NCBI GenBank assembly: GCA_963748035.1
Contig: CAVVHO010000005.1
Span: forward strand, 1,097,080 to 1,161,079
Reading direction: 5' to 3'
Length of the DNA stretch: 64,000 nucleotides
Source of the DNA: an uncultured Gemmatimonadales bacterium
Lineage (GTDB): Bacteria; Gemmatimonadota; Gemmatimonadetes; Gemmatimonadales; GWC2-71-9
Position numbers and translations under genes: made by a program. How positions within the stretch are numbered: position 1 is the first letter of the stretch; every line of letters begins with the position of its first letter. Shown in pieces: positions 5,853 through 64,000 of the stretch. Below the pieces are notes generated by a model. The model ran no database searches. It saw only the letters and a list, made by a program, of their open reading frames with translations, and was not told the DNA's origin.

Positions 5853-6650
5853 ATGCAAGAGAAATCAGCGCTTGGACGCGCTCAGGTGATGGTCCGAGAT
5901 CTCCGCCAGCGCTGCCCTTGGGACCGGGTCCAGACGCGCGAGACCATCCGTCCGTACCTGCTTGAGGAGGTGTTCGAGCTGGACCATGCCATCGCGCAAG
6001 GTAATCCGGCCGCTATCCGCGAAGAGGTCGCGGATCTTCTGCTTCACTTGGCCTGGCAGCTGGTCTTGGCCGAGGAGGCAGGCGAGTTCACCGCCGAGGA
6101 TGTCGTGCAGGACCTCGAGCGAAAGATGCGTCGGCGACACCCCCATCTCTTCAATCTCGGGCCCGCGGAGCAGTGGGGCCGGCTGAAGCAGCGGGAAAAG
6201 ACCGGCACCGTGCTCGATGGCCTGCCCCCCGCCCTGCCCAGCCTGCTCATGGCCTACCGGCTTCAGGAGCGCGCCGCCGGAGTTGGCTTCGATTGGCCGG
6301 ACACTTCGGGTCCAGCAACCAAGGTGCGCGAGGAACTCGCGGAAGTCGAAGAGTCGCTCGCGTCCGCCCCTCCAGCACCACCCATTGCGGTGACCTCAGG
6401 CGAGCCGGTACCGCCGCATGCCGGAGACGAGGTCACCGATGAAATCGGAGACCTGCTTTTCGCGGTGGTAAACCTGGCTCGCAAGGCCCGAGTGCAACCG
6501 GCCATCGCACTCGATCGGGCCAATCGAAAATTCCAGAGTCGGTTTACGGCGCTGGAGCGCATGGCGAATGCGCGTGGCATCGAGTTGGCGACGGCAGGGC
6601 TGGACGTGCTGGATGGGCTGTGGGAGGAGGTGAAGGCGATTGCTGATTGA
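5853..6650 (+). CDS. mazG: nucleoside triphosphate pyrophosphohydrolase MazG
   Basis: LRQRCPWDRVQTRETIRPYLLEEVFELDHAI..EEVADLLLHL, plus a second MazG repeat EIGDLLFAVVNLAR. Confidence 0.9.
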   Translation: MQEKSALGRAQVMVRDLRQRCPWDRVQTRETIRPYLLEEVFELDHAIAQGNPAAIREEVADLLLHLAWQLVLAEEAGEFTAEDVVQDLERKMRRRHPHLFNLGPAEQWGRLKQREKTGTVLDGLPPALPSLLMAYRLQERAAGVGFDWPDTSGPATKVREELAEVEESLASAPPAPPIAVTSGEPVPPHAGDEVTDEIGDLLFAVVNLARKARVQPAIALDRANRKFQSRFTALERMANARGIELATAGLDVLDGLWEEVKAIAD

Positions 6651-6717
6651 CGATTGCTGATTGCCGATTGGGCAAGGACTCTCAATCGGCAATTAGCAAT
6701 CAGCAATCGCCAATTCA
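6638..6717. repeat. palindromic pair of heptanucleotide arrays: (GATTGNN)x5, 10-12 nt loop, (CAATNNN)x5
   Basis: Left arm 6638-6672: gattgct gattgac gattgct gattgcc gattggg. Right arm 6683-6717: caatcgg caattag caatcag caatcgc caattca. 6657-6670 pairs with 6683-6696 (14 bp including one G.U). The outer units pair as 5-bp blocks. The left arm includes the mazG stop codon. Confidence 0.85.
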
Positions 6718-6735
6718 CGGCTGCCGAACCCGGGC

Positions 6736-8032
<1,297 letters not shown>

Positions 8033-12791: not shown

Positions 12792-12811
12792 GGGAGGAAC
12801 CTAGTTGGCGT

Positions 12812-12863
12812 TGGCTGTCAGCCGTCAGCCGTCTGCCGTCGGCCGTCGGCCGTCGGCCGCCGA
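12812..12863. repeat. heptanucleotide tandem array (TCRGCCG)x6-7
   Basis: tggctg tcagccg tcagccg tctgccg tcggccg tcggccg tcggccg ccg, in the 149-nt spacer upstream of ftsY. Confidence 0.9.
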
Positions 12864-12903: not shown

Positions 12904-12943
12904 CGCTAATGGCCAATTGCTAACGGCTAACGGCCTTCCGTTA
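12904..12943. repeat. second heptad array (ggccaat tgctaac ggctaac ggccttc), approximately the reverse complement of the first array; ends in hairpin taacgg-cctt-ccgtta over the upstream gene stop
   Basis: Period-7 units at 12911-12938. The reverse complement of tcagccg is cggctga, versus cggctaa here, so minus-strand RNA could pair the two arrays using G.U. 6-bp hairpin 12928-12933 / 12938-12943. Confidence 0.7.
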
Positions 12944-52197: not shown

Positions 52198-53226
52198 GTG
52201 CTTCAAAGAAACGAAGATACCGAAGCGCTTCGGCCGGAGCAACGGCGTCCTGGGGACCCACTGCGAGCTCCAGCAGAGGCTGCCAGATCGACCGGCCATT
52301 CCGCCCTGAAATCAAGCACGTCATTCGTCACCGGATGTCGGAACTGGAGCCAGGCGGCGTGCAGCGCCTGCCGAGGAGCGAGCCGTTCTAGGACCTCCGC
52401 GGGAGTGCGCTGGGGCCCGGTCATTCGGCGACTCCCGCCGCCACCATAGACAGGGTCCCCGACGATCGGGTGGCCGATGTGAGCAAGGTGCACGCGGATC
52501 TGGTGGGTACGACCGGTGTGCAGCTCGAGACGCAGCAGGTCCACCAATCCCAGTCGAGCCACCACATAGGCGTCGGTGCGCGACGGGCGGCCTGCATCGG
52601 AGACCGTCATCCGCTTGCGATCCCGTGGATGTCGGGCCAAGCGCGGCTTCGATCACCGTTGGACTCTGATCGAGATGGCCCCAGCAGAGCGCGGCGTAAC
52701 GGCGAGCGATCCGCCTCGCGGCGAGCATCGCGCCGAGTCGGCGATGCGCCTGATCGGTCTTAGCGATCACCATGAGGCCGGAGGTGTCTCGGTCCAGCCG
52801 GTGCACAATACCCGGGCGCCCCGCAGCCCCCCCGGAGAGCGTCGTGCCTCGGGCGACCAGCGCATTCACCAAGGTGTCCTGCCAGTGCCCCGGTGCGGGA
52901 TGCACCACGAGCCCTGCCGGCTTGTTGATGACCGCCAGGTGCTCGTCCTCGAAGACGATCTCGAGGTGCATTGGCGTGGGGACGAGCTGTCGGGGGGGCT
53001 CGGAATCCGGAAACGTCACGGTCACCTGCTCCCCCCGGACCAGGGTGCGGGAGGACCGCGCGACCACAGCATTCACCGAGACGCCCCCCTCGGCCACCAG
53101 CCTGGCGGCCTGAGTGCGGGACAGTTCAAGCTGATCGGCGAGGAAGCGGTCGAGCCGTTCGGTAGTAGGGGAGAGAACCGAAAAGGTCAGTACGAAGGGA
53201 GGAGTCAGGAGGTCTGGTCGCTCCAA
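52190..53226 (-). pseudogene. rluD: 23S rRNA pseudouridine synthase RluD; two +1 frameshifts (about 52634-52641 and about 52281-52287) as sequenced
   Basis: S4 domain RLDRFLADQLELSRTQAARLV; LAVINKPAGLVVHP; GIVHRLDRDTSGLMV; ..TVIEAAL | (+1) (G)RHPRDRKRMTV..LHTGRTHQIRVHLAHIGHPIVGDPVYG..AEWPVDL | (+1) QPLLELAVGPQDAVAPAEALRYLRFFEAHG*. Span 1037 nt = 3n+2. Confidence 0.85.
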
Positions 53227-53233
53227 GGACTCC

Positions 53234-53800
53234 TCATTCCTTACTTCGAACTGCGCTGGCTGGCTCGGGGGGAGTGTTTTCCGGGGGCAATGGCAGACCT
53301 AACGACGCGGCGGAACGATCCCGCCGGGCATCCTCCTGCCAGAGCGAGATGGCGAGAGCGATGGCTCCGCAGCTCACCGCCATGTCCGCCACGTTGAAAG
53401 TTGGCCAGCGCCACACACCCACGCCGAGATCCAGAAAGTCCACGACACCCAGACTGGAGCGGATGCGGTCCACCAGATTGCCGATGGCCCCGCCCGTCAC
53501 CAGGCCCAGGGCCAACTGGCGGAACCAGTCGCCAGGCTGCGCCGAACGATGATAGCGGTAGAGGAGCGCGACCGCGCCGACGGCGATAGCCATGAAGATC
53601 CAGCGCGAGAGCGGTCCCAGATCCAGACCAAACGCAGCGCCGGGGTTATAGACCAGCCGAAGCTGGAACCAGTCCCCGAACACCGACCGCCCCGCCGAAC
53701 GCAGGAGAAAGCGTTCGGCCAGGTTCTTTGTCAGGATGTCGAGGGCGAGGATCGTGAGCCCGGCGCCCCAATACAGCCGCCGTTCAGCGCCGTTTTCCAT
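53234..53800 (-). CDS. lspA: lipoprotein signal peptidase II
   Basis: ATG 53800: ..ILALDILTKNLA..LRLVYNPGAAFG..GGAIGNLVDR..VVDFLD..WPTFNVADMAV. Confidence 0.92.
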   Translation of the reverse strand: MENGAERRLYWGAGLTILALDILTKNLAERFLLRSAGRSVFGDWFQLRLVYNPGAAFGLDLGPLSRWIFMAIAVGAVALLYRYHRSAQPGDWFRQLALGLVTGGAIGNLVDRIRSSLGVVDFLDLGVGVWRWPTFNVADMAVSCGAIALAISLWQEDARRDRSAASLGLPLPPENTPPEPASAVRSKE

Positions 53801-54204: not shown

Positions 54205-57200
54205 TCAGGCGCCGGCGCGATGCCGACGCACACTGAGAGTGACCTGGAACCCTTCGACGTCCACCGGCTGTCGGAGGTCGGCCTCCGCAATCGTCCGTCC
54301 CAACTCGAGTCGCCGCGCCAGCGTCTCGGTCATGATAAATCCCCGGTGTTCCTCTGCCGCGGTCAGCACCGGCTCCGGGCCCTCGACCCCCAATTCGATC
54401 CTGTCGCTGACTTGATAGTCGGCGTCACGCCGGAGGCGCTGGATGTGGTGCACCAGCTCCCGGGCGAGGCCTTCCCGGCTCAGCATGACATCAAGAGTTG
54501 GATCAAGAGCCGCGACGTAGGGCCCATCACTGGCCACAAGCCAGGAGGTCGCCACCTCCCGCTCCACGACTACATCCTCAGAAGAATAAGCGAATTGCAT
54601 GCCGTTTTCATGCACGGAGACCACCTGCCCGGATTCCAGGGCCCGAAGCTGATCCTGGCTGAGGGTCTCGACCGCCTTGGCCGCCGCCGGGGTTTCCTTC
54701 CCATAGCGCTTGCCAAGGGAACGGAAGTTTGCCTTGCCCTTGAGGCGCACCAAGTCGGTATCCGATTCCGCTATCGAAATCAGTTTGACGTTCACCTCGC
54801 TCTGGAGGATTCCCAGAAGCCGCTCGAAGACTGGACCTCGCACACCGCCTGGGACCGCGACCTGCATCCGGGCCAGCGGCTGCCGCACCTTCAGCTTCGC
54901 CGCCTCGCGGGCCGAGCGCGCAAGCGAGGCAAGACGTCGGATCGCGTCCATGGCAATCGAAAGCTGGGCAACATCCCCTGACCCGACCGGCTCGCCTCTC
55001 CCGAGAACATCGGCGCCGGGTCGCGGCTTGGGCCACCCACCAAGGTGGACCGCAGTACCCGCCAGAGACCGATGCAGCCAGTCACTCGCAAACGGGGCTC
55101 CCGGAGCGAGGAGCCGGCTGACCACCACCAGACATTCCCAAAGCGTGGCGGTGGCATCGGCATCTGCTTCGCCATCCGGCGCCCAGAATCGGTCACGACT
55201 GATTCGTACGTACCAGTTGGAAAGATCATCAACCACAAAGTCCATGAGGGCGCGAATCCCCGCCGTGGGCTCGTAGCTTGACCAAGCCGCGGTGACGGCG
55301 CCGACAGTAGCCTCGAGACGGCCGAGGACCCATTGGTCGGACAGAGGCCGCTCGCCTCTGGGCAAGGCCCGCTGGGCGCCGCCGGCGTAGCGCCGAAAGA
55401 ACTCATAGGTGTTCTTGAGGGCCCGAAGAAAATCGCCGGTCACCTGCGGGATCTGCCGGGGGTCGAATGGCTTCTCGTTCCACACCTGGCTCGACGCCAA
55501 CAGGTACAGCCGAACGGTGTCGGCCCCGAATTCCCCCACCATCTCCCAAGGATCCACGACGTTCCCGAGCCGTTTGGACATCTTGCGGCCATCGGCGTCC
55601 TGCAGCAGCCCGTTCACAATGACGTTGCGGTACGCCGGGCTGTCGAATGCCGTAGTGGCAATCGCCAGCAGGGAATAGAACCAGCCGCGGGTCTGGTCCA
55701 CACCTTCGCAGATATAGTCGGCGGGGAAATGTGCTCGGAACTCGGCTTCGTGTTCGAACGGGTAGTGCCACTGGGCATAGGGCATCGAACCCGAATCAAA
55801 CCAGGTGTCGATCACCTCTGGCGTCCGTTTCATGGTTCCGCCGCAGCGGCAGGACCACGTGTAGCTGTCGATGTAGGGCTTGTGGGGGTCAAAATTCGCC
55901 GGCAGCACCTGGCCCCAGCGCTCCGCCAGGCGGGCATAGCTCCCGACTACTTCGACGTGCTCCGGCTCCTGGTCACAGACCCAGACTGGAAGAGGTGTCC
56001 CCCAGTAGCGATCCCTGGAGAGAGCCCAGTCGACGTTGTTTTCCAGCCAACCACCGAACCGGCCTTCGCCCACGGCGAGAGGCTGCCAGTTCACCTGCCG
56101 GTTGAACTCGACCATCCGCTCCTTCACCATCGAGGTGCGGACGAACCAGCTGTCGCGGGCGTAGTAGATGAGCTTGCTGGAACAGCGCCAGCAGAAAGGG
56201 TAGTCATGCTCATACTGCTCGGTCCGCAGCCAACGACCGTCAGCCTTGAGCTGCCGGATGATCGCCTCGTTGGTTTCGTCAGCCGTGACGAGCTTGCCTT
56301 CGATCTCGGGCCAAATGGTGCCCTGAAACGTCCCATCGGGGCCGACCGGACGCACAAGCGCGAGGTTGAACTTTTGGCCGGCGGCGTAGTCATCCGCGCC
56401 AAAGGCCGGCGCCATATGCACGATGCCCGATCCGTCCTCGGCGGTGACGAATTCACCAGGGATGACCACCGAGTGGTCCTTGTCGGCCGGCATCGCGACG
56501 ACATTGAAAGGCTTGATGTAACGCAGCCCCGCCAGCTCGCGCCCTTTTACGGCCGATTCGAGAACGACCTCGCCCCCGAGGACTTCCCGCAGTTTTTCTT
56601 CCTGGGCAATCGCCATGACGAAGATCCGGCCCGGGTGCTTCGTGCTCCGATAGAGTCCGTACTCGAGATCCGGATGAACCGCCGCGGCCACGTTCGAGGG
56701 CAGCGTCCACGGCGTGGTGGTCCAGATCACGAGCTCCCGTCCGGAATCATCCGCCAGGGGAAAAGTGACGTAGATCGACCGATCCTTGATCTTGTCGTAT
56801 CCCAGCGAAAGCTCGTGGCTCGAGAGCACGGTGCCGCAGCGGGGGCAGTACGGCAAGACTCGATGCCCGCGGGACAGCAGGTTCTTTTCAAACAGCCGAT
56901 GTAGCAGCCACCAGACCGACTCGATGTACTCGTTGGTGTAGGTGACGTAGGCGTGTTCGTAGTCCAGCCAATAGCCGATCCGGTTGGAAAGCTCTTCCCA
57001 GTCGGCCTTGTAGGTGAATACACTCTTCCGACAGAGGCGATTGAACTCCTCCACGCCAAACGCCTCGATGGCTTTCTTGCCGTTGAGATTGAGTTGCTTC
57101 TCCACCTCGATCTCCACCGGCAGCCCATGGGTGTCCCATCCCGCGATCCGCGTGACCGATTTCCCCTGCATCGTTTGGAAACGGCAGATGAGGTCCTTGA

Positions 57201-57390
57201 TGGTCCGGGCGAAGACGTGGTGGATGCCGGGTTTGCCGTTCGCGGTTGGCGGGCCCTCGAAAAACACAAACGGAGGCCCCGAGCGAGTGGCATCGAGGGT
57301 CTGTTCGAAGAGCCGCTCTTCCTTCCATCGGCCGAGCAGCTCCTGTTCCATCCGGTCGGCGCCGCCGTCCGGCCAGGGCCGATAGCTCAT
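54205..57390 (-). CDS. ileS: isoleucyl-tRNA synthetase (long, type-2-like form)
   Basis: ATG 57390 (ATGA overlap with the punA stop): ..FFEGPPTANGKPGIHHVFAR (HIGH)..GWDTHGLP..KMSKRLGN (KMSKS). The 84-aa upstream extension in the track ORF is His/Arg junk. Confidence 0.95.
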   Translation of the reverse strand: MSYRPWPDGGADRMEQELLGRWKEERLFEQTLDATRSGPPFVFFEGPPTANGKPGIHHVFARTIKDLICRFQTMQGKSVTRIAGWDTHGLPVEIEVEKQLNLNGKKAIEAFGVEEFNRLCRKSVFTYKADWEELSNRIGYWLDYEHAYVTYTNEYIESVWWLLHRLFEKNLLSRGHRVLPYCPRCGTVLSSHELSLGYDKIKDRSIYVTFPLADDSGRELVIWTTTPWTLPSNVAAAVHPDLEYGLYRSTKHPGRIFVMAIAQEEKLREVLGGEVVLESAVKGRELAGLRYIKPFNVVAMPADKDHSVVIPGEFVTAEDGSGIVHMAPAFGADDYAAGQKFNLALVRPVGPDGTFQGTIWPEIEGKLVTADETNEAIIRQLKADGRWLRTEQYEHDYPFCWRCSSKLIYYARDSWFVRTSMVKERMVEFNRQVNWQPLAVGEGRFGGWLENNVDWALSRDRYWGTPLPVWVCDQEPEHVEVVGSYARLAERWGQVLPANFDPHKPYIDSYTWSCRCGGTMKRTPEVIDTWFDSGSMPYAQWHYPFEHEAEFRAHFPADYICEGVDQTRGWFYSLLAIATTAFDSPAYRNVIVNGLLQDADGRKMSKRLGNVVDPWEMVGEFGADTVRLYLLASSQVWNEKPFDPRQIPQVTGDFLRALKNTYEFFRRYAGGAQRALPRGERPLSDQWVLGRLEATVGAVTAAWSSYEPTAGIRALMDFVVDDLSNWYVRISRDRFWAPDGEADADATATLWECLVVVSRLLAPGAPFASDWLHRSLAGTAVHLGGWPKPRPGADVLGRGEPVGSGDVAQLSIAMDAIRRLASLARSAREAAKLKVRQPLARMQVAVPGGVRGPVFERLLGILQSEVNVKLISIAESDTDLVRLKGKANFRSLGKRYGKETPAAAKAVETLSQDQLRALESGQVVSVHENGMQFAYSSEDVVVEREVATSWLVASDGPYVAALDPTLDVMLSREGLARELVHHIQRLRRDADYQVSDRIELGVEGPEPVLTAAEEHRGFIMTETLARRLELGRTIAEADLRQPVDVEGFQVTLSVRRHRAGA

Positions 57391-58220
57391 GAGGCGATCT
57401 GTTCGACCAGGCTCGAGACCAATCGGGTCAGCTTGGGTTCGGCGCCCATCGCGATCGCGATGATGTGTTCGATCTTGGCTGGGGTGAGCGCATCTGGAAG
57501 GCACTGATCGGTGATGATGGATATCCCCACCGTCTTCATTCCCTGATGGACGGCGACGATCACCTCGGGCACGGTGGACATGCCGACGATGTCCGCGCCC
57601 ATGCCCCGAAGCATCCGGTACTCGGCCCTGGTTTCGAGACACGGACCGGGAACGGCGACATACACCCCTTCACGGAGGGTGATTCCCTGCTCCAGCGCGA
57701 GCGCCCGCGCGCGGGCCCGGAGCCCGGCGTCGTAGGGATCCGACATATCCGGAAACCTGGGACCAAGCCGATCGTCGTTCCGGCCGATGAGCGGATTGTC
57801 GCCGAGAAAGTTGATATGGTCGCTGATGAGTACCAGATCCCCCGGCGCCCACAGGGGGTGCATACCACCGGAGACGTTGGTCACGACCAAGGTGTTCGCG
57901 CCGAGGGCGTGCATCACCCGGAGCGGAAAGGTGACCTCCTGCAGGGTGTAACCCTCGTAGCGGTGGAAGCGTCCCTGCATCGCGACGACCTTGCGACCCG
58001 AGAGCCGACCCAACAGCAGCCGCCCCGCATGGCTTTCGACGGTAGAAAGCGGGAATCCGGGGATTTCCTCATAGGGGATCACCGCTTCGGTGACGATCTC
58101 CTTGGCAAGACCGCCGAGGCCAGTGCCGAGGATGATCGCGATATCGGGCGTAAAAGCGCTGCGGCCGCGTACCACGGCGGCCGCCTGCTGAATCCGTTCG
58201 TAAAGATCGGGGAGGGTCAT
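57387..58220 (-). CDS. punA: purine nucleoside phosphorylase (trimeric PNP/PunA type)
   Basis: IAIILGTGLGGLA..HAGRLLLGRL..VAMQGRFHRYEGY..VTNVSGG..GMSTVPEV. Confidence 0.9.
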   Translation of the reverse strand: MTLPDLYERIQQAAAVVRGRSAFTPDIAIILGTGLGGLAKEIVTEAVIPYEEIPGFPLSTVESHAGRLLLGRLSGRKVVAMQGRFHRYEGYTLQEVTFPLRVMHALGANTLVVTNVSGGMHPLWAPGDLVLISDHINFLGDNPLIGRNDDRLGPRFPDMSDPYDAGLRARARALALEQGITLREGVYVAVPGPCLETRAEYRMLRGMGADIVGMSTVPEVIVAVHQGMKTVGISIITDQCLPDALTPAKIEHIIAIAMGAEPKLTRLVSSLVEQIAS

Positions 58221-58732
58221 GCGTGGCGCTTGAGCAGCAGCTCCGTCTGGACTTGATGGGAAAGCTGCGCGTGGGTTTGCAAGCCCTCGATCTCGCCTAA
58301 CTGGCGCTCGAGCAAGGCGCGGAAGTTGGCGAGATAGGCCGCGAACTGCCGCTGCAGCATCTCATGCCGCTCCCGCACCTGCTTTTCCTCTTCTTGAGCC
58401 TGGCCAACCAGGCGAAGCGCGTCGGTCTTGGCCTCGCGCAGGATGGCCTCGGAATCACGATCGGCCTGCTCCTGCGCGGCCACCCGCAGCTGCTGCGCCG
58501 CGAGCAGTGCTTCGTTCATTGCGCGCTCCCGCTCGCGGAAAGCCCGGAGCTGTTCCTGAAAGCCCTGCAGCCGCTCGTCCAGCTTCATCCGTTCCCGGAC
58601 CAGACGGTCGAGCTCTTCCGCGACCCTGGTCTTGAACTCTTCCACCTGCGCGGGATCGTATCCGCGAAAGATGCGCTGGAACTCCTGTGCCCGAACATCG
58701 CTCGGGGTCAGGTGAAACGCGTCGTTGCTCAT
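58217..58732 (-). CDS. divIVA: DivIVA domain protein
   Basis: LTPSDVRAQEFQRIFRGYDPAQVEEFKTRVAEELDRL, followed by a coiled coil. Confidence 0.88.
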   Translation of the reverse strand: MSNDAFHLTPSDVRAQEFQRIFRGYDPAQVEEFKTRVAEELDRLVRERMKLDERLQGFQEQLRAFRERERAMNEALLAAQQLRVAAQEQADRDSEAILREAKTDALRLVGQAQEEEKQVRERHEMLQRQFAAYLANFRALLERQLGEIEGLQTHAQLSHQVQTELLLKRHA

Positions 58733-59415
58733 GAGCCGCGCTCTCCAAACAGAAGGGTCCCCAACCGCACGATCGTGGCGCCCTCTTCTACTGCCACGAG
58801 ATAGTCTCCCGACATCCCCATCGACAACTCTGGTAACCGGATGCCCCGCCGCTCTTCGACGTCGCGGAGCTGGCGGAGTGTCCGGAAGGCGTCGCGCTGC
58901 TGATCGACATTCTCGGTCAACGCCGCCATCGTCATCAATCCGCGAATCTCGAGGCGCGAGTGCGGCTGTATCTGGTCCAGGACGACCGGCAGCTCGGCCG
59001 GAAGGACCCCGCCCTTCTGCGATTCGTCGGAGCAGTTCACCTGCACCAAGATCGGCTGCCGGCTGCCGGGGCTGGCCCGCCGAGCGAGATCCTCGGCGAG
59101 CCCGACGCTGTCCACCGAATGAATGAGCGCAAAACGACCGACAGCGTGTTTCGCCTTATTGCGCTGGAGGCTGCCGATCAAGTGCCAGTCGACCTCCACA
59201 TCGGCGAGCTGCTCCTGCTTGGCGATAGCCTCCTGCACCCGGTTTTCGCCCACCGCGGTGAGCCCCACGGCGACTGCCGCCCGAACGGCCTCAGGCGGAT
59301 GGGTCTTGGTGACTGCAACGATCGTAACCGGGTGGGTCCATTCGCTCCGCGCCTGATGCTCGGCGATCCGGGCCCGGACCTCGGCCACGCGCTCAGCCAG
59401 TCCGGGATACGGCAT
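58729..59415 (-). CDS. yggS: PLP-binding protein YggS/YlmE family
   Basis: ATG 59415: ..VTIVAVTKTHP..VGENRVQE..WHLIGSLQRNK..HSVDS..EIRGLMTMA..LSMGMSGDY..IVRLGTLLFG. Confidence 0.9.
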   Translation of the reverse strand: MPYPGLAERVAEVRARIAEHQARSEWTHPVTIVAVTKTHPPEAVRAAVAVGLTAVGENRVQEAIAKQEQLADVEVDWHLIGSLQRNKAKHAVGRFALIHSVDSVGLAEDLARRASPGSRQPILVQVNCSDESQKGGVLPAELPVVLDQIQPHSRLEIRGLMTMAALTENVDQQRDAFRTLRQLRDVEERRGIRLPELSMGMSGDYLVAVEEGATIVRLGTLLFGERGS

Positions 59416-59443
59416 GGGAGGTAAATCTAAGCAGCGGTTAGGG

Positions 59444-61835
59444 TTATTTGTAGGGGGCGGAGTCGCCCGGCGGCGAATCGCCCCGGGGCTGGACCAGCAT
59501 GGACATGAGCGCCCGTTTGAGCGCCGGGTTGGTGGAGAGCTGGGCTGCTCGGTTGAGATTGTTGATGGCGGCGTCCCGGTCGCTACGGACCTCATAGGCG
59601 TAGGCCAGCTGAGAGAACGGAAGCGACAGGTTGTTTGCCACGCCCGCCGCGGTCGGCTCAAGCTGGTTCGGCTTGTCGCGCAGGAGACCAGCGTACCGGT
59701 ACGTCCCCCAGGCGAGTCGGTCGGTAGTCGGCACGTCTAGAGACACGCCGAGGATCCTGTGATTGTCGACGTCCGCCCGCGTCGTATCCACGGCGCCGGT
59801 CTGCAGCCGCATCACGAGTCCTTGCTGCAGCAGGTAGCGTTCCAGTCCGTAGAACTCGCCACCCGTCGTCATCGACCACGCGATTGGACGGCGCCCGTGA
59901 TTGTCCTGGAGGATGCGGAGCACCGCGAAATCCCGGCTGTAGATCGGTGTCCCCTTCCTCAGCACGTGGCTGATGGGGCCGATCTGCAGGGTAAAGTCCC
60001 GGGGAAGCAGCTGGCCCTCGGCCTGGGCGATCTGCGCGTCGCTGAGGCTATGTGGCTTCCAGGTGGGCAGCACCGCGTGCGCCACCCTTCCAGATGTCAG
60101 GCGCGGCCACCTCGTCGAACGGGCGGATCGGGTTGTCTCGGAGTTGTCGCTTGTACCAGTCGGTCTCCGTCAACGCGAGACAGACCACCAGCACATCCTG
60201 GCGCACCCCGTTCACTTCCTGGGCCCACCACAGTGGGAAGGTGTCGTTGTCACCGTAGGTAAACAGAATGCCGTAAGGCGGTACCGAATTGAGCAGGTCG
60301 TAGGCAAAGTCGGCCGCCAGTGTGGCATCGGCGCCGTGCCGCCTCGTGGCGGCGCTGAAGTTGCCCACGAATGGAGCCAGCGCTACGAGCCCGAGCGGAA
60401 CCGCCGCGAGTCCTGGAGCCAACCGACGCCACCTCTCCATCGCCGAGCGGATCAAGGAGGTCAATCCCATCCCCGCCCACAGGCCCCATACCAGGAAACT
60501 CACCACAAAGAAGTAGTCGCGATCGCGGACTTCATGATCGCTGCCATCGGGGTAGTTGTCGTACGCCATGCTGAAGCCCGGCTTGAAATTCATGTAGACC
60601 ACCAGCCCTAGCCCAGTCACCAGCCACAACAGGAAGAGCAACCACCAACCCGCCCGATCGGCGCGCCGCTGCAGGAACAATCCGCGGATGCCGAGCCAGG
60701 CGAAGAACAGGGTCGGGAGTAGTCGGGCTGGCAGTTTCACGATGGCCAGGTCCATCACGGCCCGGAGGCCGTTGGCCCATTGCCAGTCGAAGTACTGGAC
60801 GTAGTTCGCCAGTTGCAGGGCGATGATCTTGACGCTTCGCCCAGGGTTGTCGAGACCGTGCGCAATGGTGGGGTCGTCAAGCGGTGTCCGGACGGGGTAT
60901 TGCTCCCGCCGGATCACCGCGAGCAGGGCCGTCCAGTTGTCAGGCTGGGCCTCGTTGATGATCGGGTGCTGGCCCGCGCGGATATAGAGGAAGAGGTAGC
61001 TGGTGACTCCGATGGCCGAGACCGCCAACGCCACCAGCGCGAATGGCAGGGCGGATGCGGTGGCCGCGAATGCCGCGGCCGCCAGAAAGCAGGCTCCACC
61101 GAGCACGACGAGTATGGTACTCCCGAGGCCGCACCCGATGAGGAGCGCCCAGCTTCCCGCGACGACCGCCACCTGAGCCCATTCCATGGAGCGTTCGCGC
61201 GGCGTCGCTGCGGGATCCTGGAGCAGGACAGCCGCGAGGAACCCGACCACGGCCGGGCCCACCAGCAAGGCCAGCAGGTGGTTCCCGATGGACAGCCCCG
61301 CCAGATACAGGATGAGGAGCAGGACGTGCGACGCGCGCACCGTCCCACGGTTCGCGCGCCAGACCAGGCAGAGCCAGGTGATCGCCGCTATGGTGAAGGT
61401 GGCGGCGGCGTACACCTCGGTCTCATTGGAGTTCTGCCAATTTGTGAATGTGAATGCCGAGATGAGCACCGCGGCAAGGCTCCCCCCGACCCGCAAGAGC
61501 CGGGCACCCGGTTCCGGCAGGTCGGCGGCGTAGCGCGCGAGGGTCTCATGGACGACGAGAAACAAGAACCCGGCGGCGCAGGCACTCAGCGTCGCGCTGA
61601 GCAGATTGGTCCGCTGAGCGTACTCAGAAAGCGGCACCAATGCACCCCACACATGCCCAATCAGCACGAACAGCGGTGTGCCAGGCGGATGCGGGATACC
61701 CAGGTTCTTCGCCGCGGCGATGAACTCTCCCGCGTCCCAGAATGTCACAGTCGGCGCGAGCGTGATGACGTATCCGGTCAGAACAAGCGCCGTGGCGAGG
61801 ACAGCCAAGAGGTAGGGAGGGCGGCGGGTGGTCAT
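59444..61835 (-). pseudogene. DUF2723-type GT-C fold membrane glycosyltransferase-like protein; +1 frameshift near 60080-60092 as sequenced
   Basis: N-terminal ORF 60048-61835 (..LAPTVTFWDAGEFIAAAKNLGIPHPPGTPLF.., at least 10 TM). C-terminal ORF 59444-60085 continues in the +1 frame (..DIWKG | AHAVLPTWKPHSLSD..). Span 2392 nt = 3n+1. Confidence 0.75.
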
Positions 61836-61843
61836 TCAGGCGG

Positions 61844-61927
61844 TGGGTGTGAGGAGTGAGAAGTAGGAAGTGAGGAGTGAGGAGTGAGGAGTGAGGAGTC
61901 AGAAAGGAAACGTGAAGAGTGGAAAGG
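61844..61927. repeat. heptanucleotide tandem array (GAGGAGT)n, 7 core units + degenerate flanks
   Basis: 61851-61899: gaggagt gagaagt aggaagt gaggagt gaggagt gaggagt gaggagt; then cagaaag gaaacgt gaagagt ggaaagg. Lies in the 143-nt folP/DUF2723 spacer. Confidence 0.92.
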
Positions 61928-61978
61928 GGATCCGCTGCCTTACACCCTCGACGTTCCACCTTACGCGTCTTGAGTCGT

Positions 61979-63151
61979 TCACCGCTCACCTCCGACCGCC
62001 GCAGCGACCGACAGCGCATCCCGGGCCATGGCCACGTTGTGCACTCGAAAGAGCCGTGCGCCCCGTTCGTAGGCAACCACGCAGGCCGCAGCTGTGGCGA
62101 CGTCGCGATCGCCGAGCTCCCGACCCGTCACGCTCCCGAGGAACCGCTTTCGAGACGGTCCGACGAGGATGGGACGTCCCAGGGAACGAAGGGCCGCCAA
62201 GCGGTCGCACAGCAGCAGATTCTGCTCCGCGGTCTTGGAGAATCCGAAACCGGGGTCGAGCACGATGCGCTCTGCCGGCACACCCGCGGTGAGGGCTCGA
62301 TCGAACGCCGCACCCAGCTCCGTCCGCACCCCGGTCACCACATCCGGGTCGTACTCGGCGTCATCCAGCCGTGCCATGGTGCTCACCGTTCCCCGGCTAT
62401 GCATCAGGATCACCCCCGCGCCGGCCTGTGCCGCCGTCCGGGCCATGGCGGGGTCCAGTCGGAATGCGGAGACGTCGTTCACGATCGCGGCTCCGGCCTC
62501 GACCGCCGCGCGCGCGACGCCAGCTTTGACGGTGTCCACTGAGATTGGGACGCCGGGGTGGCGTTTCACCAACGCTTCAAGCACCGGCATGACCCGGGAG
62601 AGTTCGTCGGGCTCCGGGACCGGCTCGCTGCCCGGCCGCGTGGATTCGCCGCCGAGGTCGAGCACGGCCGCCCCGTCCGCCACGAGCCGGTCAGCCTGGG
62701 CCACCGCGGCGTCCGGCGCCAGAAATCGGCCACCATCGCTGAAGGAATCGGGGGTGAGATTCAGAATGCCGAGGATCACGGGGCGATCGAGGCGGATGGA
62801 GCCCCGGGCGGTCACCCAGCTCGCAGGTGGTTCCGGAGTCAGCAGCAGACCGACGGCAGTCGCCACATCCGCGAGTGGCGGTGGCACCGTCCACGGTCGC
62901 GCCAGTGCCCCGAGTCTGGCTTCGGGCCCTCCCACGATGGCCCAGTCCGGACCGGTGATGACTTCAACGCCTAGCTGACCCGCGTAGTGAACCAGTGCGA
63001 GGATGGTGGAATCATCGAGGCCCGATAGCTCGATCGCCAAGGCGGCCATTCCACCAGCCGCGGCGTCGGCTCGGGCCTCGTCCACCCCCCGCGCGCGCAG
63101 CGCTTCGATAACGGCGCGCGGGGAATGGCACGGGAGACCGCGGGCGATCAC
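61979..63151 (-). CDS. folP: dihydropteroate synthase with about 120-aa N-terminal extension of unknown function
   Basis: DHPS core starts near RPVILGILNLTPDSFSDGG..DLGGESTRPG..ISVDT..IVNDVS..LVGPSRK. Preceded by MIARGLPCHSPRAVIEALRARGVDE..LVHYAGQLGVEVITGPDWAIVGG. ATGA overlap with the ftsH stop. Confidence 0.88.
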   Translation of the reverse strand: MIARGLPCHSPRAVIEALRARGVDEARADAAAGGMAALAIELSGLDDSTILALVHYAGQLGVEVITGPDWAIVGGPEARLGALARPWTVPPPLADVATAVGLLLTPEPPASWVTARGSIRLDRPVILGILNLTPDSFSDGGRFLAPDAAVAQADRLVADGAAVLDLGGESTRPGSEPVPEPDELSRVMPVLEALVKRHPGVPISVDTVKAGVARAAVEAGAAIVNDVSAFRLDPAMARTAAQAGAGVILMHSRGTVSTMARLDDAEYDPDVVTGVRTELGAAFDRALTAGVPAERIVLDPGFGFSKTAEQNLLLCDRLAALRSLGRPILVGPSRKRFLGSVTGRELGDRDVATAAACVVAYERGARLFRVHNVAMARDALSVAAAVGGER

Positions 63152-64000
63152 GCGCCCATCGGCTCCGCGGGCGGCGCCCCGAGAATGGGCTTCCGCTGCG
63201 GCGCCGCATCTGCCTTGGGCGCCTGGGCGGCGGCGGGAGAGATCGGCGTCGAGGAGGGCAGCAGCGGCTGCAGCGGCTTGCCCTGGGCGATGAGGTCAAG
63301 ATCCTCGCGGTCAATGGTTTCCCGTTCGAGCAGCTCTGCCGCGATCTTGTCCAGCAAGGTCCGGTGTTGGTTGAGGATCCGTCGAGCGTTCTCGTGGGCC
63401 TCGTCGAGGAAGAGCTTGACTTCATCGTCCACGACCTGGGCGGTGCGCTCGGAGACCTCGCGCCGCTGGCCGAATTCCCGGCCGAGGAAGATCTCCTGCT
63501 CCCGGTCGCCGATGGCCATCATCCCGATCTTCTCACTCATTCCGAACTGGGTCACCATCCGGCGCGCGATCGCCGTCGCCTGCTCGATGTCGCTGCCAGC
63601 GCCAGTCGTCACCATGTTGGGGCCGAAGACCAGCTCCTCGGCGACCCGGCCACCGAAGGCAATCGTGAGTCGGCCGATGAGGAACTGCTTGGTATGCCCG
63701 TAGCGGTCCTTCTCCGGCAGCGACATCATCAAACCCAGGGCCCGGCCACGCGGCACGATGGTCACCTTGTGGATCGGATCACTGCCTTCGGTCTTGAGCG
63801 ACACCACGGTATGCCCCGCCTCATGATAGGCGGTCAGGCGGCGCTCGTCCTCTGAAAGCACGAGGCTCTTTCGCTCGACCCCAAGCATCACCTTGTCCTT
63901 GGCGTCCTCGAAATCCTGCATATCGACCAGCGGCTTGTTGCGACGGGCGGCGAGCAACGCGGCTTCGTTGACCAGGTTGGCCAGGTCTGCCCCTGCCATC
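63148..64000 (-). CDS. ftsH: ATP-dependent zinc metalloprotease FtsH, C-terminal part (5' end beyond window)
   Basis: ..GADLANLVNEAALLAARR..TAYHEAGHTVV (HEAGH zinc site)..GGRVAEELVFG..TTGAGSDI. Confidence 0.93.
   Translation of the reverse strand, partial: MAGADLANLVNEAALLAARRNKPLVDMQDFEDAKDKVMLGVERKSLVLSEDERRLTAYHEAGHTVVSLKTEGSDPIHKVTIVPRGRALGLMMSLPEKDRYGHTKQFLIGRLTIAFGGRVAEELVFGPNMVTTGAGSDIEQATAIARRMVTQFGMSEKIGMMAIGDREQEIFLGREFGQRREVSERTAQVVDDEVKLFLDEAHENARRILNQHRTLLDKIAAELLERETIDREDLDLIAQGKPLQPLLPSSTPISPAAAQAPKADAAPQRKPILGAPPAEPMGA

Follow-up and report, generated by a model that had tools for sequence, protein, structure and literature searches.

A length-variable heptanucleotide microsatellite in the folP–GT117 spacer of a Gemmatimonadales bacterium, with an apparently coincidental likeness to a ribosome-binding site

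REP-type extragenic palindromes occur inside operons. Short tandem repeats with a 7-nt unit form another class of intergenic element. Rehm et al., 2015 (PMC4692102), who cite Mrazek 2007 and Mazel 1990, describe heptamer simple sequence repeats (SSRs) as over-represented in bacterial intergenic DNA, with GGGAATC in Xanthomonas, GGGGA(T/C)T in Nostoc and the STRR of Calothrix. In Haemophilus influenzae, the 5′-UTRs of hmw1A and hmw2A carry an (ATCTTTC)n tract, and in the RNA (AUCUUUC)n pairs with a G-rich arm and RNase III cuts (Rapun-Araiz et al., 2025; PMC12721329). In marine Beggiatoaceae, TAACTGA repeats are found upstream of starts without a Shine-Dalgarno (SD) sequence, with 169 loci in the genome (MacGregor, 2015; PMC4679880).

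Here we analyse a heptamer array in a 64-kb window, that is, the whole stretch of DNA under study. The host of the array is a soil Gemmatimonadales bacterium. The array occupies the 143-nt spacer between folP and a DUF2723/GT117-type gene (GT117 below), both on the minus strand (Table 1), and Pfam matches for the two products bear out the gene identities and strand logic proposed in an initial annotation of this DNA. The folP gene ends with a TGA at 61981-61979 and encodes an N-terminal extension of about 125 aa that is conserved, tblastn alignments of relatives beginning at residue 1; a Pfam search with its N-terminal 124 aa gave no match. GT117 starts with an ATG at 61835-61833; relatives with unrelated DNA upstream conserve MT(T)RRPPY, which backs this start. 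The homologous proteins measure about 787 aa. The N-terminal part of the product aligns with residues 26-602 of homologue P0003, and a +1 frameshift near 60078-60082 puts the remainder in another frame; the frameshift base is also present in genome L164 and missing from L163 and L162. An exact-protein look-up of the GT117 fragment returned no record, and a metagenome scan with its N-terminal 150 aa gave a best match of 82% and no conspecifics. Conspecific genomes were located by protein search and cluster listing.

Table 1. Positions of the features discussed, in window coordinates.
Feature	Position	Strand	Basis
folP, dihydropteroate synthase	61979..63151	-	Pfam Pterin_bind E 4e-79, residues 128-371
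GGAGG inside the folP 3′ end	61989..61993	-	sequence; comparison with coupled orthologues
Imperfect mRNA-strand hairpin, beginning 16 nt past the folP stop	61903..61962	-	RNA folds
Four decayed heptamers, CAGAAAG GAAACGT GAAGAGT GGAAAGG (+ strand)	61900..61927	.	heptamer-register reading
Heptanucleotide microsatellite	61851..61899	.	TRF, excess over chance, unit positions, length polymorphism (4 near-identical genomes)
58-nt G-free, C/U/A-only leader RNA stretch, predicted unpaired	61842..61899	-	base-run count, MFE and centroid folds
15 nt between array and start codon, ACACCCACCGCCUGA, without SD	61836..61850	-	sequence, three-frame translation
DUF2723/TMEM260-like/GT117-type glycosyltransferase gene, N-terminal 595 codons	60048..61835	-	Pfam PF11028 E 9e-44
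GT117 C-terminal ~200 codons, other frame	59444..60085	-	aligns with P0003 residues 604-806

On the plus strand the array reads as seven head-to-tail heptamers, GAGGAGT, GAGAAGT, AGGAAGT and (GAGGAGT)4, of which five are perfect and two are variants; the mRNA strand is accordingly (ACUCCUC)4 ACUUCCU ACUUCUC ACUCCUC. Both this array and the decayed units next to it are as the initial annotation had described them. Tandem Repeats Finder (TRF) calls a period of 7 at 61849-61899, with 7.3 copies, 86% matches and a score of 79, the maximum within the window. The double unit GAGGAGTGAGGAGT occurs six times (up to two mismatches allowed) against 0.36 expected, a count reached in none of 100 shuffles, and within the window tandem GAGGAGT is confined to this spacer. 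The spacer is also the top compositional outlier of the window, with an 80-nt GC skew of +0.90 on the plus strand (40 G, 2 C; the next peak is 0.54 and the standard deviation 0.14), and the longest C-free run on that strand is 58 nt at the array, the runner-up being 22 nt. Purines make up 84% of one strand, where GAGGAG forms a mirror repeat.

The last ACTCCTC unit on the mRNA strand ends at 61851 and is followed by the 15 nt ACACCCACCGCCTGA and then the ATG. No GGAG, GAGG or AGGA was found upstream of this ATG, which agrees with the earlier description of an SD-less start 15 nt past the tract. An in-frame TGA (61838-61836) stands immediately 5′ of the ATG and prompted us to consider an upstream ORF with reinitiation; three-frame translation of the spacer revealed no upstream ORF, and the G-free stretch has no start codon in any frame. 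Scans of the spacer found no sigma-70-like promoter on either strand and no intrinsic terminator, the hairpin being followed by UUUCCUUUCUGAC and not by a U run. Rfam families were absent from 61600-62200 at E values up to 1, and at gathering thresholds the whole window yielded two tRNAs only and no 16S rRNA. Plus-strand ORFs at or near the array (61891.., 61919.., 60780..) were rejected as coding, having no Pfam families and all being antisense to real genes.

The array was compared with its counterparts in three further genomes, L161, L163 and L164, at 95.6-98% nucleotide identity over 4.4-7 kb. Spacer lengths are 143 nt in the window, 130 nt in L161 and 121 nt in both L163 and L164, counts of CTCC/GGAG cores are 5, 2, 1 and 1 in the same order, and perfect units range from only one to five. 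The differences among the four spacers are confined to the array, with flanks and hairpin kept, as expected of the slippage-prone tract suggested in the initial annotation. More specifically, when the window is aligned with L161 over 7 kb, 13 of the 24 gap columns fall inside the roughly 50-nt array, and all indels outside it are of 1 nt. The 13-nt difference between these two spacers is not a whole number of 7-nt units, and since several assemblies carry single-base indels, part of the allele fine structure could be assembly error. Because L163 was assembled by Logan from a public sequencing run, the tract is not tied to a single assembly. That the array as such is an assembly artefact in low-complexity sequence is extremely improbable: many single-base indels and several split genes in the window and its relatives do suggest error-prone assemblies, but four assemblies made independently from different samples all have the array with the same flanks and degenerate 3′ units, and errors at other places are indels of 1 nt, unlike the multi-base differences nearing one or two units. 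The array is a fast-changing heptanucleotide microsatellite, varying in length while its flanks stay fixed. The properties by which prokaryotic SSRs are recognised are all found in it, namely a short head-to-tail unit, a copy excess over composition and a tract-confined length polymorphism.

Such instability could in principle arise from non-B DNA that affects replication or transcription: the mirror repeat might adopt H-DNA or an intrastrand triplex, or the G-rich strand might form a two-tetrad G-quadruplex, which would be weak. The purine-rich strand and its mirror repeat would suit such structures, intrastrand triplex motifs and G-rich heptamer repeats have been tied to instability and variability in other bacteria (PMC4666352, PMC4692102), and the length of the locus is indeed unstable among relatives. 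We regard this explanation as very unlikely, given that a T interrupts each seventh base, that the arms and loops do not, by inspection, match the scheme of a published triplex finder (stems of 6-15 nt, loops of 1-6 nt), and that slippage alone accounts for the instability.

Heptamer arrays are common in the order. Among arrays of at least four copies in 1.04 Mb of Gemmatimonadales DNA, 21 have period 7, 18 period 3, 13 period 9, seven period 8, five period 6 and three period 4, with none of periods 5 and 11; among the non-triplet periods, 7 is the dominant one in this sample. The unit differs at every locus surveyed, and many arrays are inverted pairs with predicted hairpins down to about -140 kcal/mol. 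GGAG or CTCC is present in 2 of 23 surveyed heptamer arrays, matching the fraction of 0.086 expected for random heptamers of the same composition, so units with these cores occur at chance frequency. Tandem GAGGAGT was found in none of 160 related loci. Orthologous spacers of L008, L017/L162 and L083 hold other heptamers, that of L017/L162 being a G4-capable (GGGGAAC)n array; units seen in more distant orthologous spacers include CCTTTCA and GTTCCCC, many relatives have no repeat, and in L005 and L082 the orthologous spacer is filled by unrelated palindromes. In L162 the called ORF was extended through its heptamer array.

We next consider the leader in which the array lies. Over the 40 nt that precede the ATG, 21 distinct close-clade spacers have mean C of 0.48 and G of 0.13 with no SD-like motif in any of them, compared with mean C of 0.29-0.31 and G of 0.27-0.30 in control leaders, none of which combines G ≤0.13 with C ≥0.45 (the sequences are related and non-independent, and the controls small and crude, with only 19 true free leaders). 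Beyond the close clade the bias weakens (C 0.41, G 0.24). Judged from the sequences, the clade seems to conserve the composition of this leader (C-rich, G-poor, SD-free) and not its sequence. The lack of an SD is not unusual in itself: in crude calls only about one-fifth to one-third of gene starts have an SD-like motif. A literature search on Gemmatimonas and Shine-Dalgarno found nothing relevant. At 59 of 107 more distant loci folP and GT117 overlap or abut, and distant relatives with this arrangement have GGAGG or GGGAGG about 6-15 nt 5′ of the downstream ATG or GTG. The GGAGG inside the folP 3′ end of the window is about 150 nt from the GT117 start owing to the spacer, and is probably a relic SD.

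Between folP and the perfect units lies the imperfect hairpin noted in the initial annotation, which we recover with 26 pairs (5 G.U) at about -21 to -22 kcal/mol. Its purine-rich 5′ arm (61962-61938), loop (61937-61928) and pyrimidine-rich 3′ arm (61927-61903) fold at -21 to -26 kcal/mol in three alleles. Both arms are composed of degenerate heptamers, the decayed units coinciding with the 3′ arm. RNAalifold keeps the hairpin in the four near-identical genomes with no compensatory pair changes, a lack of covariation signal that follows from the four alleles being too close in sequence. Fold z-scores of the 165-nt region against shuffles were 0.31 and 0.06 on the two strands (not significant), so that, for its composition, the hairpin is statistically unexceptional. 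Both the MFE and the centroid prediction leave the perfect units unpaired, pairing being limited to the decayed units, and extra units leave the predicted structure unchanged because only decayed units pair. In an in-silico series of 0 to 12 perfect units, MFE was constant from four units upward and start-site accessibility stayed between 0.30 and 0.44 with no trend, which rules out a structure-based role for unit number.

The initial annotation had proposed that the transcript (ACUCCUC)n is an anti-SD mimic pairing with SDs in cis or in trans, or that an antisense RNA with seven SD cores acts as a sponge titrating ribosomes. The unit does contain CUCCU, presumably identical to the anti-SD core of this organism's own 16S rRNA, and its complement contains GGAG. 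Orthologues in the order use canonical GGAGG-type SD sites, so the anti-SD is probably canonical, and pairing of this kind occurs in the same window, where a CUCCUC segment is predicted to pair with the SD of an rluD-like gene (53185-53255). The proposal fares poorly against the comparative data and is highly improbable: the number of cores changes from genome to genome even among the four near-identical ones, GGAG-containing heptamers are at chance level, other lineages have unrelated units or none, and no tandem copy exists at the 160 related loci. Moreover, the GGAG cores stand on the strand opposite to both flanking genes, the core is not conserved in orthologous leaders, the folds contain no stable cis SD partner for the array, neither strand has a promoter-like site and the plus-strand ORFs lack Pfam families. 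A shared origin with a GAGGAGT-like pair at 53199/53229 was also rejected, that element being the rluD-like SD and start paired with the downstream CUCCUC.

The array seems to resemble a ribosome-binding site by coincidence, which makes the feature ordinary. We consider it likely that the feature is a recently expanded heptanucleotide SSR in the folP–GT117 intra-operon spacer, its SD likeness incidental and the RNA that it adds to the leader structurally inert. Replication slippage would have expanded (ACUCCUC)n at the 3′ edge of a hairpin that is older and is built of decayed heptamer arrays. The tract would be sense-transcribed within an ftsH-folP-GT117 mRNA, as suggested by the overlapping or abutting genes of most distant relatives and by the lack of promoter-like or terminator-like sites in the spacer. 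A G-free pyrimidine repeat fits the conserved composition of the leader and would therefore be tolerated there. According to the fold models, the array would separate the folP-proximal hairpin from the SD-less ATG by some 50-60 nt of structurally inert, single-stranded pyrimidine RNA. GT117 expression would then be affected, if at all, in a quantitative way, through leader length or through binders of unstructured C/U-rich RNA, candidates being ribosomal protein S1 or a 30S standby site, or Rho loading; action through pairing with 16S rRNA or SD sites would not be involved. If the GT117 frameshift is real, selection on the leader may be relaxed in this strain, and this could itself explain the expansion.

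Rho loading can be extended into a distinct explanation in which the spacer is a rut site and serves as an intra-operon attenuator. Rut sites are C-rich, G-poor and unstructured. Ribosomes would leave at the folP stop, and Rho would load on the untranslated RNA that follows, about 95 nt rich in C and poor in G; transcription of GT117 would depend on how fast the SD-less start is engaged, and the loading site would grow or shrink with the array. The RNA has the sequence character required: it is long, untranslated, free of uORFs and predicted to be unstructured, its bias of C over G (40 C and 2 G within 80 nt) is the window maximum, and the C-rich, G-poor character is kept in 21 related spacers. 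Against this, many related spacers, at 19-60 nt, could not accommodate a full rut site, and the need for an unstructured translation-initiation region would account for such a composition just as well. We hold an attenuator to be rather unlikely.

Glycosyltransferase-type genes are often phase-variable in pathogens. GT117 belongs to a glycosyltransferase-like family (TMEM260-like/GT117) and the repeat number varies among the four near-identical genomes, so a contingency tract of the hmw type might be envisaged, in which the number of leader repeats tunes a surface-modifying glycosyltransferase, possibly via a hairpin and RNase III. As in the hmw leader (PMC12721329), purine-rich and pyrimidine-rich arms are present. 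This reading is unlikely on several grounds. In the folds and in the unit series, the repeat units do not form a long leader-hairpin arm, and the predicted structure is indifferent to units added to an unpaired tract. The one to five perfect units seen here compare with at least 11 in natural hmw (PMC12721329). The spacer has no detected promoter, the observed differences lie between genomes and not within one population, and many relatives have no repeat in the orthologous spacer. A broader proposal is decidedly improbable: that the locus-specific heptamer arrays of the order, often inverted pairs with very long hairpins, are a class not described before, and that here one of them replaced ancestral SD-mediated translational coupling with a C-rich, SD-less leader in which a strain-variable repeat number tunes a protein-O-mannosyltransferase-like enzyme. 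If true, such tuning would be SSR-based expression variation resembling that of hmw in a free-living soil phylum.

Independently of function, Gemmatimonadales heptamer arrays could act as strain-typing markers, and they may mislead gene callers, as in L162. Given a usable cultured relative, the GT117 leader would be a tractable case in which to study Rho-dependent polarity or SD-independent initiation in a high-GC phylum.

The locus can be compared with several described systems. It resembles REP palindromes in having a hairpin just past the upstream stop in a co-directional spacer, and the spacers of relatives hold unrelated palindromes; it differs in that the arms are heptamer arrays and not a dispersed consensus, and mobility or mRNA stabilisation is without support here. 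With the TAACTGA repeats (PMC4679880), for which S1 or other single-strand RNA binders have been proposed, it shares tandem heptamers a few nt 5′ of an SD-less start, whereas GAGGAGT is tandem at one locus only, as judged from the 64-kb window and the 160 related loci. With the hmw leaders (PMC12721329), it shares a pyrimidine-rich heptamer in the leader of a surface-related gene (transcription being presumed here), a neighbouring purine-rich segment that pairs with heptamers and a strain-variable repeat number. In hmw the hairpin arm is made of 10 repeats, which both expression and processing by RNase III require; here, by contrast, the perfect units are predicted unpaired, copies are far fewer and the array lies in an intra-operon spacer instead of a promoter-proximal UTR. 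Finally, like the heptamers of Xanthomonas, Nostoc and Calothrix (PMC4692102), the array has a 7-nt unit, is intergenic and is variable in length and sequence between close relatives; some of those arrays, too, are inverted pairs capable of forming stem-loops, and polymerase slippage is their proposed origin. It departs from them in its phylum, Gemmatimonadota, in that each locus has its own heptamer with no single genome-wide unit, and in that GAGGAGT is purine-rich with GG runs only and not G3-4. The array is one more member of the known heptanucleotide microsatellite class and, as found, matters little.

The spacer between folP and the downstream glycosyltransferase-like gene (GT117 gene) carries a genuine heptanucleotide simple sequence repeat (SSR), hereafter the array, whose length differs between near-identical genomes in an order rich in heptamer SSRs. 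Tandem Repeats Finder assigned it a period of 7, 7.3 copies and a score of 79, the highest in the window, and its double unit was counted well over chance expectation. The initial annotation was confirmed in every sequence detail: the array, its strand placement, and an mRNA strand reading (ACUCCUC)n that stops 15 nt ahead of an ATG lacking a Shine-Dalgarno (SD) site. This start codon is fixed by the motif MT(T)RRPPY, which is conserved in relatives with unrelated upstream DNA. No other 80-nt stretch of the window is as skewed as the array region, where the + strand has 40 G and only 2 C; its RNA has a G-free run of 58 nt, versus 22 nt for the runner-up. That DNA so skewed adopts a non-B structure of consequence is very unlikely.

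The window comes from a Gemmatimonadales bacterium, and the best 80 relatives of the GT117 protein were all from Gemmatimonadales or Gemmatimonadota MAGs. Homologues have about 787 aa, versus a split gene in the window, where a +1 frameshift near 60078-60082 leaves 595 aa (60048-61835) and about 200 aa (59444-60085). The frameshift base also occurs in L164, from another sample, and is missing from L163 and L162. Either the lineage has a genuine pseudogene or split gene here, or this is a systematic assembly error. The N terminus of folP, upstream, is extended by about 125 aa (62780-63151), a stretch with no Pfam match that folP genes across Gemmatimonadales conserve from residue 1 onward.

Features of the folP-GT117 region and its counterparts (window coordinates unless another locus is named)
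Feature	Position or spacer length	Strand	Details
ftsH	ends 63148	-	first in gene order
folP	63151..61979	-	Pterin_bind; stop 61981-61979
folP-to-GT117 spacer	143 nt	-	
Imperfect hairpin	61962-61903	mRNA (-)	starts 16 nt after folP stop
Four decayed units	after array, reaching 61927	+	
Heptamer array	61851-61899	+	GAGGAGT GAGAAGT AGGAAGT (GAGGAGT)4
DUF2723/TMEM260-like gene	61835..60048	-	GT117 is one source's name
YggS, DivIVA, PNP	downstream of GT117 gene	-	
Window array	143 nt	mRNA	CUGA (CUCCUCA)4 CUUCCUA CUUCUCA CUCCUCA; CUCC cores 5
L161 array	130 nt	mRNA	CUGAU CUCA (CUCCUCA)2 CUUCA CUUCCA CUUCUCA; CUCC cores 2
L163 array	121 nt	mRNA	CUUCUCA CUCCUCA CUUCUUA CAUCUCA CUUCUCA; CUCC cores 1
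L164 array	121 nt	mRNA	CUUCUCA CUCCUCA CUUCUUA CUUCUCA CUUCUCA; CUCC cores 1
L008 spacer			(GGUGAAA)4 facing (CCUUUCA)11
L017/L162 spacer	L017 3765-3995 = L162 2850-3040		(GGGGAAC)8 facing (GUUCCCC)8
L083 spacer			GUUCCCC units, n=3

A protein search and cluster listing yielded three contigs matching the window at 95.6-98% identity across 4.4-7 kb: L161 (ENA ERZ25039478), L164 (ENA ERZ25039602) and L163 (a Logan assembly of SRR28023191). All three hold the same spacer, with flanks and hairpin nearly identical to those of the window, and differ in the array. In a 7-kb alignment of the window with L161, 13 of 24 gap columns fall inside the array and the remaining indels are all single-base, the signature of a slippage-prone microsatellite. 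The slippage-prone tract proposed initially is thus borne out by the four spacer lengths and the gap columns, and the "seven SD-like units" are a recent state of this strain only. That the array is an assembly artefact, when ENA and Logan assemblies carry the same spacer, is hardly credible. Separately, window positions 57000-64000 show many single-base indels against L161 and L164 despite near-identity; these two contigs contain several split genes (PNP, DivIVA, tRNA synthetase), and a class II aminoacyl-tRNA synthetase near 6736-7011 in the window is present only as a 91-aa C-terminal fragment. These assemblies probably contain indel errors.

The hairpin annotated after folP was recovered in the predicted fold, with 5' arm AAGGUGGAACGUCGAGGGUGUAAGG, a 10-nt loop and 3' arm CCUUUCCACUCUUCACGUUUCCUUU on the mRNA strand (26 pairs, five of them G.U, about -21 kcal/mol). 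Both arms are in heptamer register as degenerate copies of a single unit family, so the whole spacer consists of two old heptamer arrays in inverted orientation; its 3' array has recently gained near-perfect copies, and no pairing is predicted for the perfect ones. Fold energy of the spacer was no better than that of shuffled sequences, and searches of it for Rfam matches, sigma-70-like promoters, intrinsic terminators and uORFs returned none.

We surveyed 1.04 Mb (the window plus 160 related loci) for arrays of at least four copies. Period 7 was the most frequent with 21 arrays, followed by periods 3 (18), 9 (13), 8 (7), 6 (5), 4 (3) and 10 (1), with none of period 5 or 11; heptamers are the house repeat of Gemmatimonadales. 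The unit is another sequence at every locus surveyed, and many arrays are inverted pairs predicted to fold as long hairpins (-94 kcal/mol in locus L012; -55 kcal/mol at 6625-6720 in the window). The latter pair (6637-6710) consists of (CGATTGC/TGATTGA)x5, a 12-nt loop and (CAATCRG)x5, and sits where mazG (+) and the class II aminoacyl-tRNA synthetase fragment (-) converge, between their 3' ends; the mazG stop codon falls within the array. The ftsY leader has a layout matching the folP-GT117 spacer: (GCCGTCR)x7 at 12809-12859, 17 nt ahead of an SD-less ATG preceded by UUCCUCCC, and about 45 nt away a shorter, partly complementary (GCTAACG)n array at 12905-12935.

GGAG/CTCC occurs in the tandem consensus of 2 of 23 heptamer arrays, in line with the fraction of 0.086 expected for random heptamers of the same composition, so the SD likeness of the GAGGAGT unit needs no special explanation. 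With this frequency, and with CUCC cores varying among the four near-identical genomes, the proposed anti-SD mimicry was not supported, and an SD sponge is highly improbable. Elsewhere, at the lspA/rluD-like junction (53185-53255, minus strand), a hairpin predicted at -28 kcal/mol on the mRNA strand and -33 on the other has an SD (GAGGAG) and likely TTG start in its 5' arm and CCUCCUGACUCCUCCC in its 3' arm, within the first codons of the pseudouridine synthase gene; it looks like a putative SD-sequestering stem.

The folP-to-GT117 gene order is conserved throughout Gemmatimonadales. In most distant relatives (59/107 loci) no spacer separates them: the genes overlap (ATGA) or abut, and GGAGG or GGGAGG in the folP 3' end is likely the GT117 SD. 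Within the clade sharing at least 68% identity they are parted by a 19-226-nt spacer of non-conserved sequence, its content varying by lineage. Some lineages have short C-rich stretches, and L081 has one CACUCCUCAC immediately upstream of the ATG. The spacer has been repeatedly colonised by structured repeats; the L017 hairpin spans 230 nt at a predicted -134 to -142 kcal/mol, and its G-rich arm, shared with L162, could form G-quadruplexes. In L017/L162 the GT117 ORF as extended by the gene caller includes the C-rich array and reaches 806 aa. REP- or MITE-like palindromes occur in the L005 and L082 spacers (e.g., GTCATCCCGAGCGCAGCGAGGGATC in L005).

In the 40 nt directly upstream of the GT117 ATG, 21 distinct spacers average 0.48 C and 0.13 G, and none contains an SD-like motif. 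The control leaders, drawn from the same DNA, average 0.29-0.31 C and 0.27-0.30 G, none being as C-rich and G-poor together; since these controls are crude and phylogenetically non-independent, the trend is suggestive rather than proven. It is fainter in more distant free-standing leaders. The feature shared by close-clade GT117 leaders thus appears to be composition, not sequence. In contrast to this non-conserved leader, another gene has one conserved across loci, ending in CCCAAGTAAATTCTAAGGCT-ATG or CCCACGGTAAATTAGAGGGTT-ATG (L019 4229, L054 8012, L077 3663, L057 6452, L070 6408, L078 6379).

The array would be transcribed in sense, inside an ftsH-folP-GT117 mRNA, and would add about 50-60 nt of G-free, non-folding RNA ahead of the SD-less start. 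In an in-silico series of 0-12 units, predicted start-region accessibility was unchanged and added units remained unpaired; any effect should therefore come from length or from binders of unstructured C/U-rich RNA. Candidate readers of such a leader are ribosomal protein S1 (a 30S standby site) and Rho, which may load there; a rut site or attenuator is nevertheless an unlikely role. Less likely again is SSR-tuned expression of the putative glycosyltransferase as part of a hitherto undescribed system of heptamer-array hairpins spanning the order. In our view, the leader's compositional constraint accommodates the array, which is why it is tolerated, and it probably has little or no effect on expression.

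Two known systems have a similar layout. In Beggiatoaceae, TAACTGA heptamer repeats lie directly upstream of SD-less starts, and S1, Csp or CsrA has been suggested to read them (PMC4679880); unlike TAACTGA, the folP-GT117 unit does not recur genome-wide, as judged from the 64-kb window and 160 related loci. In the H. influenzae hmw leader, a pyrimidine-rich heptamer repeat, base-paired to a G-rich arm, undergoes RNase III cleavage and modulates expression (PMC12721329), whereas the units here lie outside the predicted hairpin. The array thus lacks the defining property of each, and an hmw-like contingency tract, for all the likeness in layout, has a chance between those of attenuation and of tuned expression. 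According to PMC4692102, heptameric SSRs are over-represented in bacteria, strongly so in Xanthomonas and Nostoc intergenic DNA; they differ widely among close relatives and are at times inverted pairs, and polymerase slippage has been proposed to explain them. It is to this class of intergenic heptameric SSRs that the folP-GT117 array belongs.
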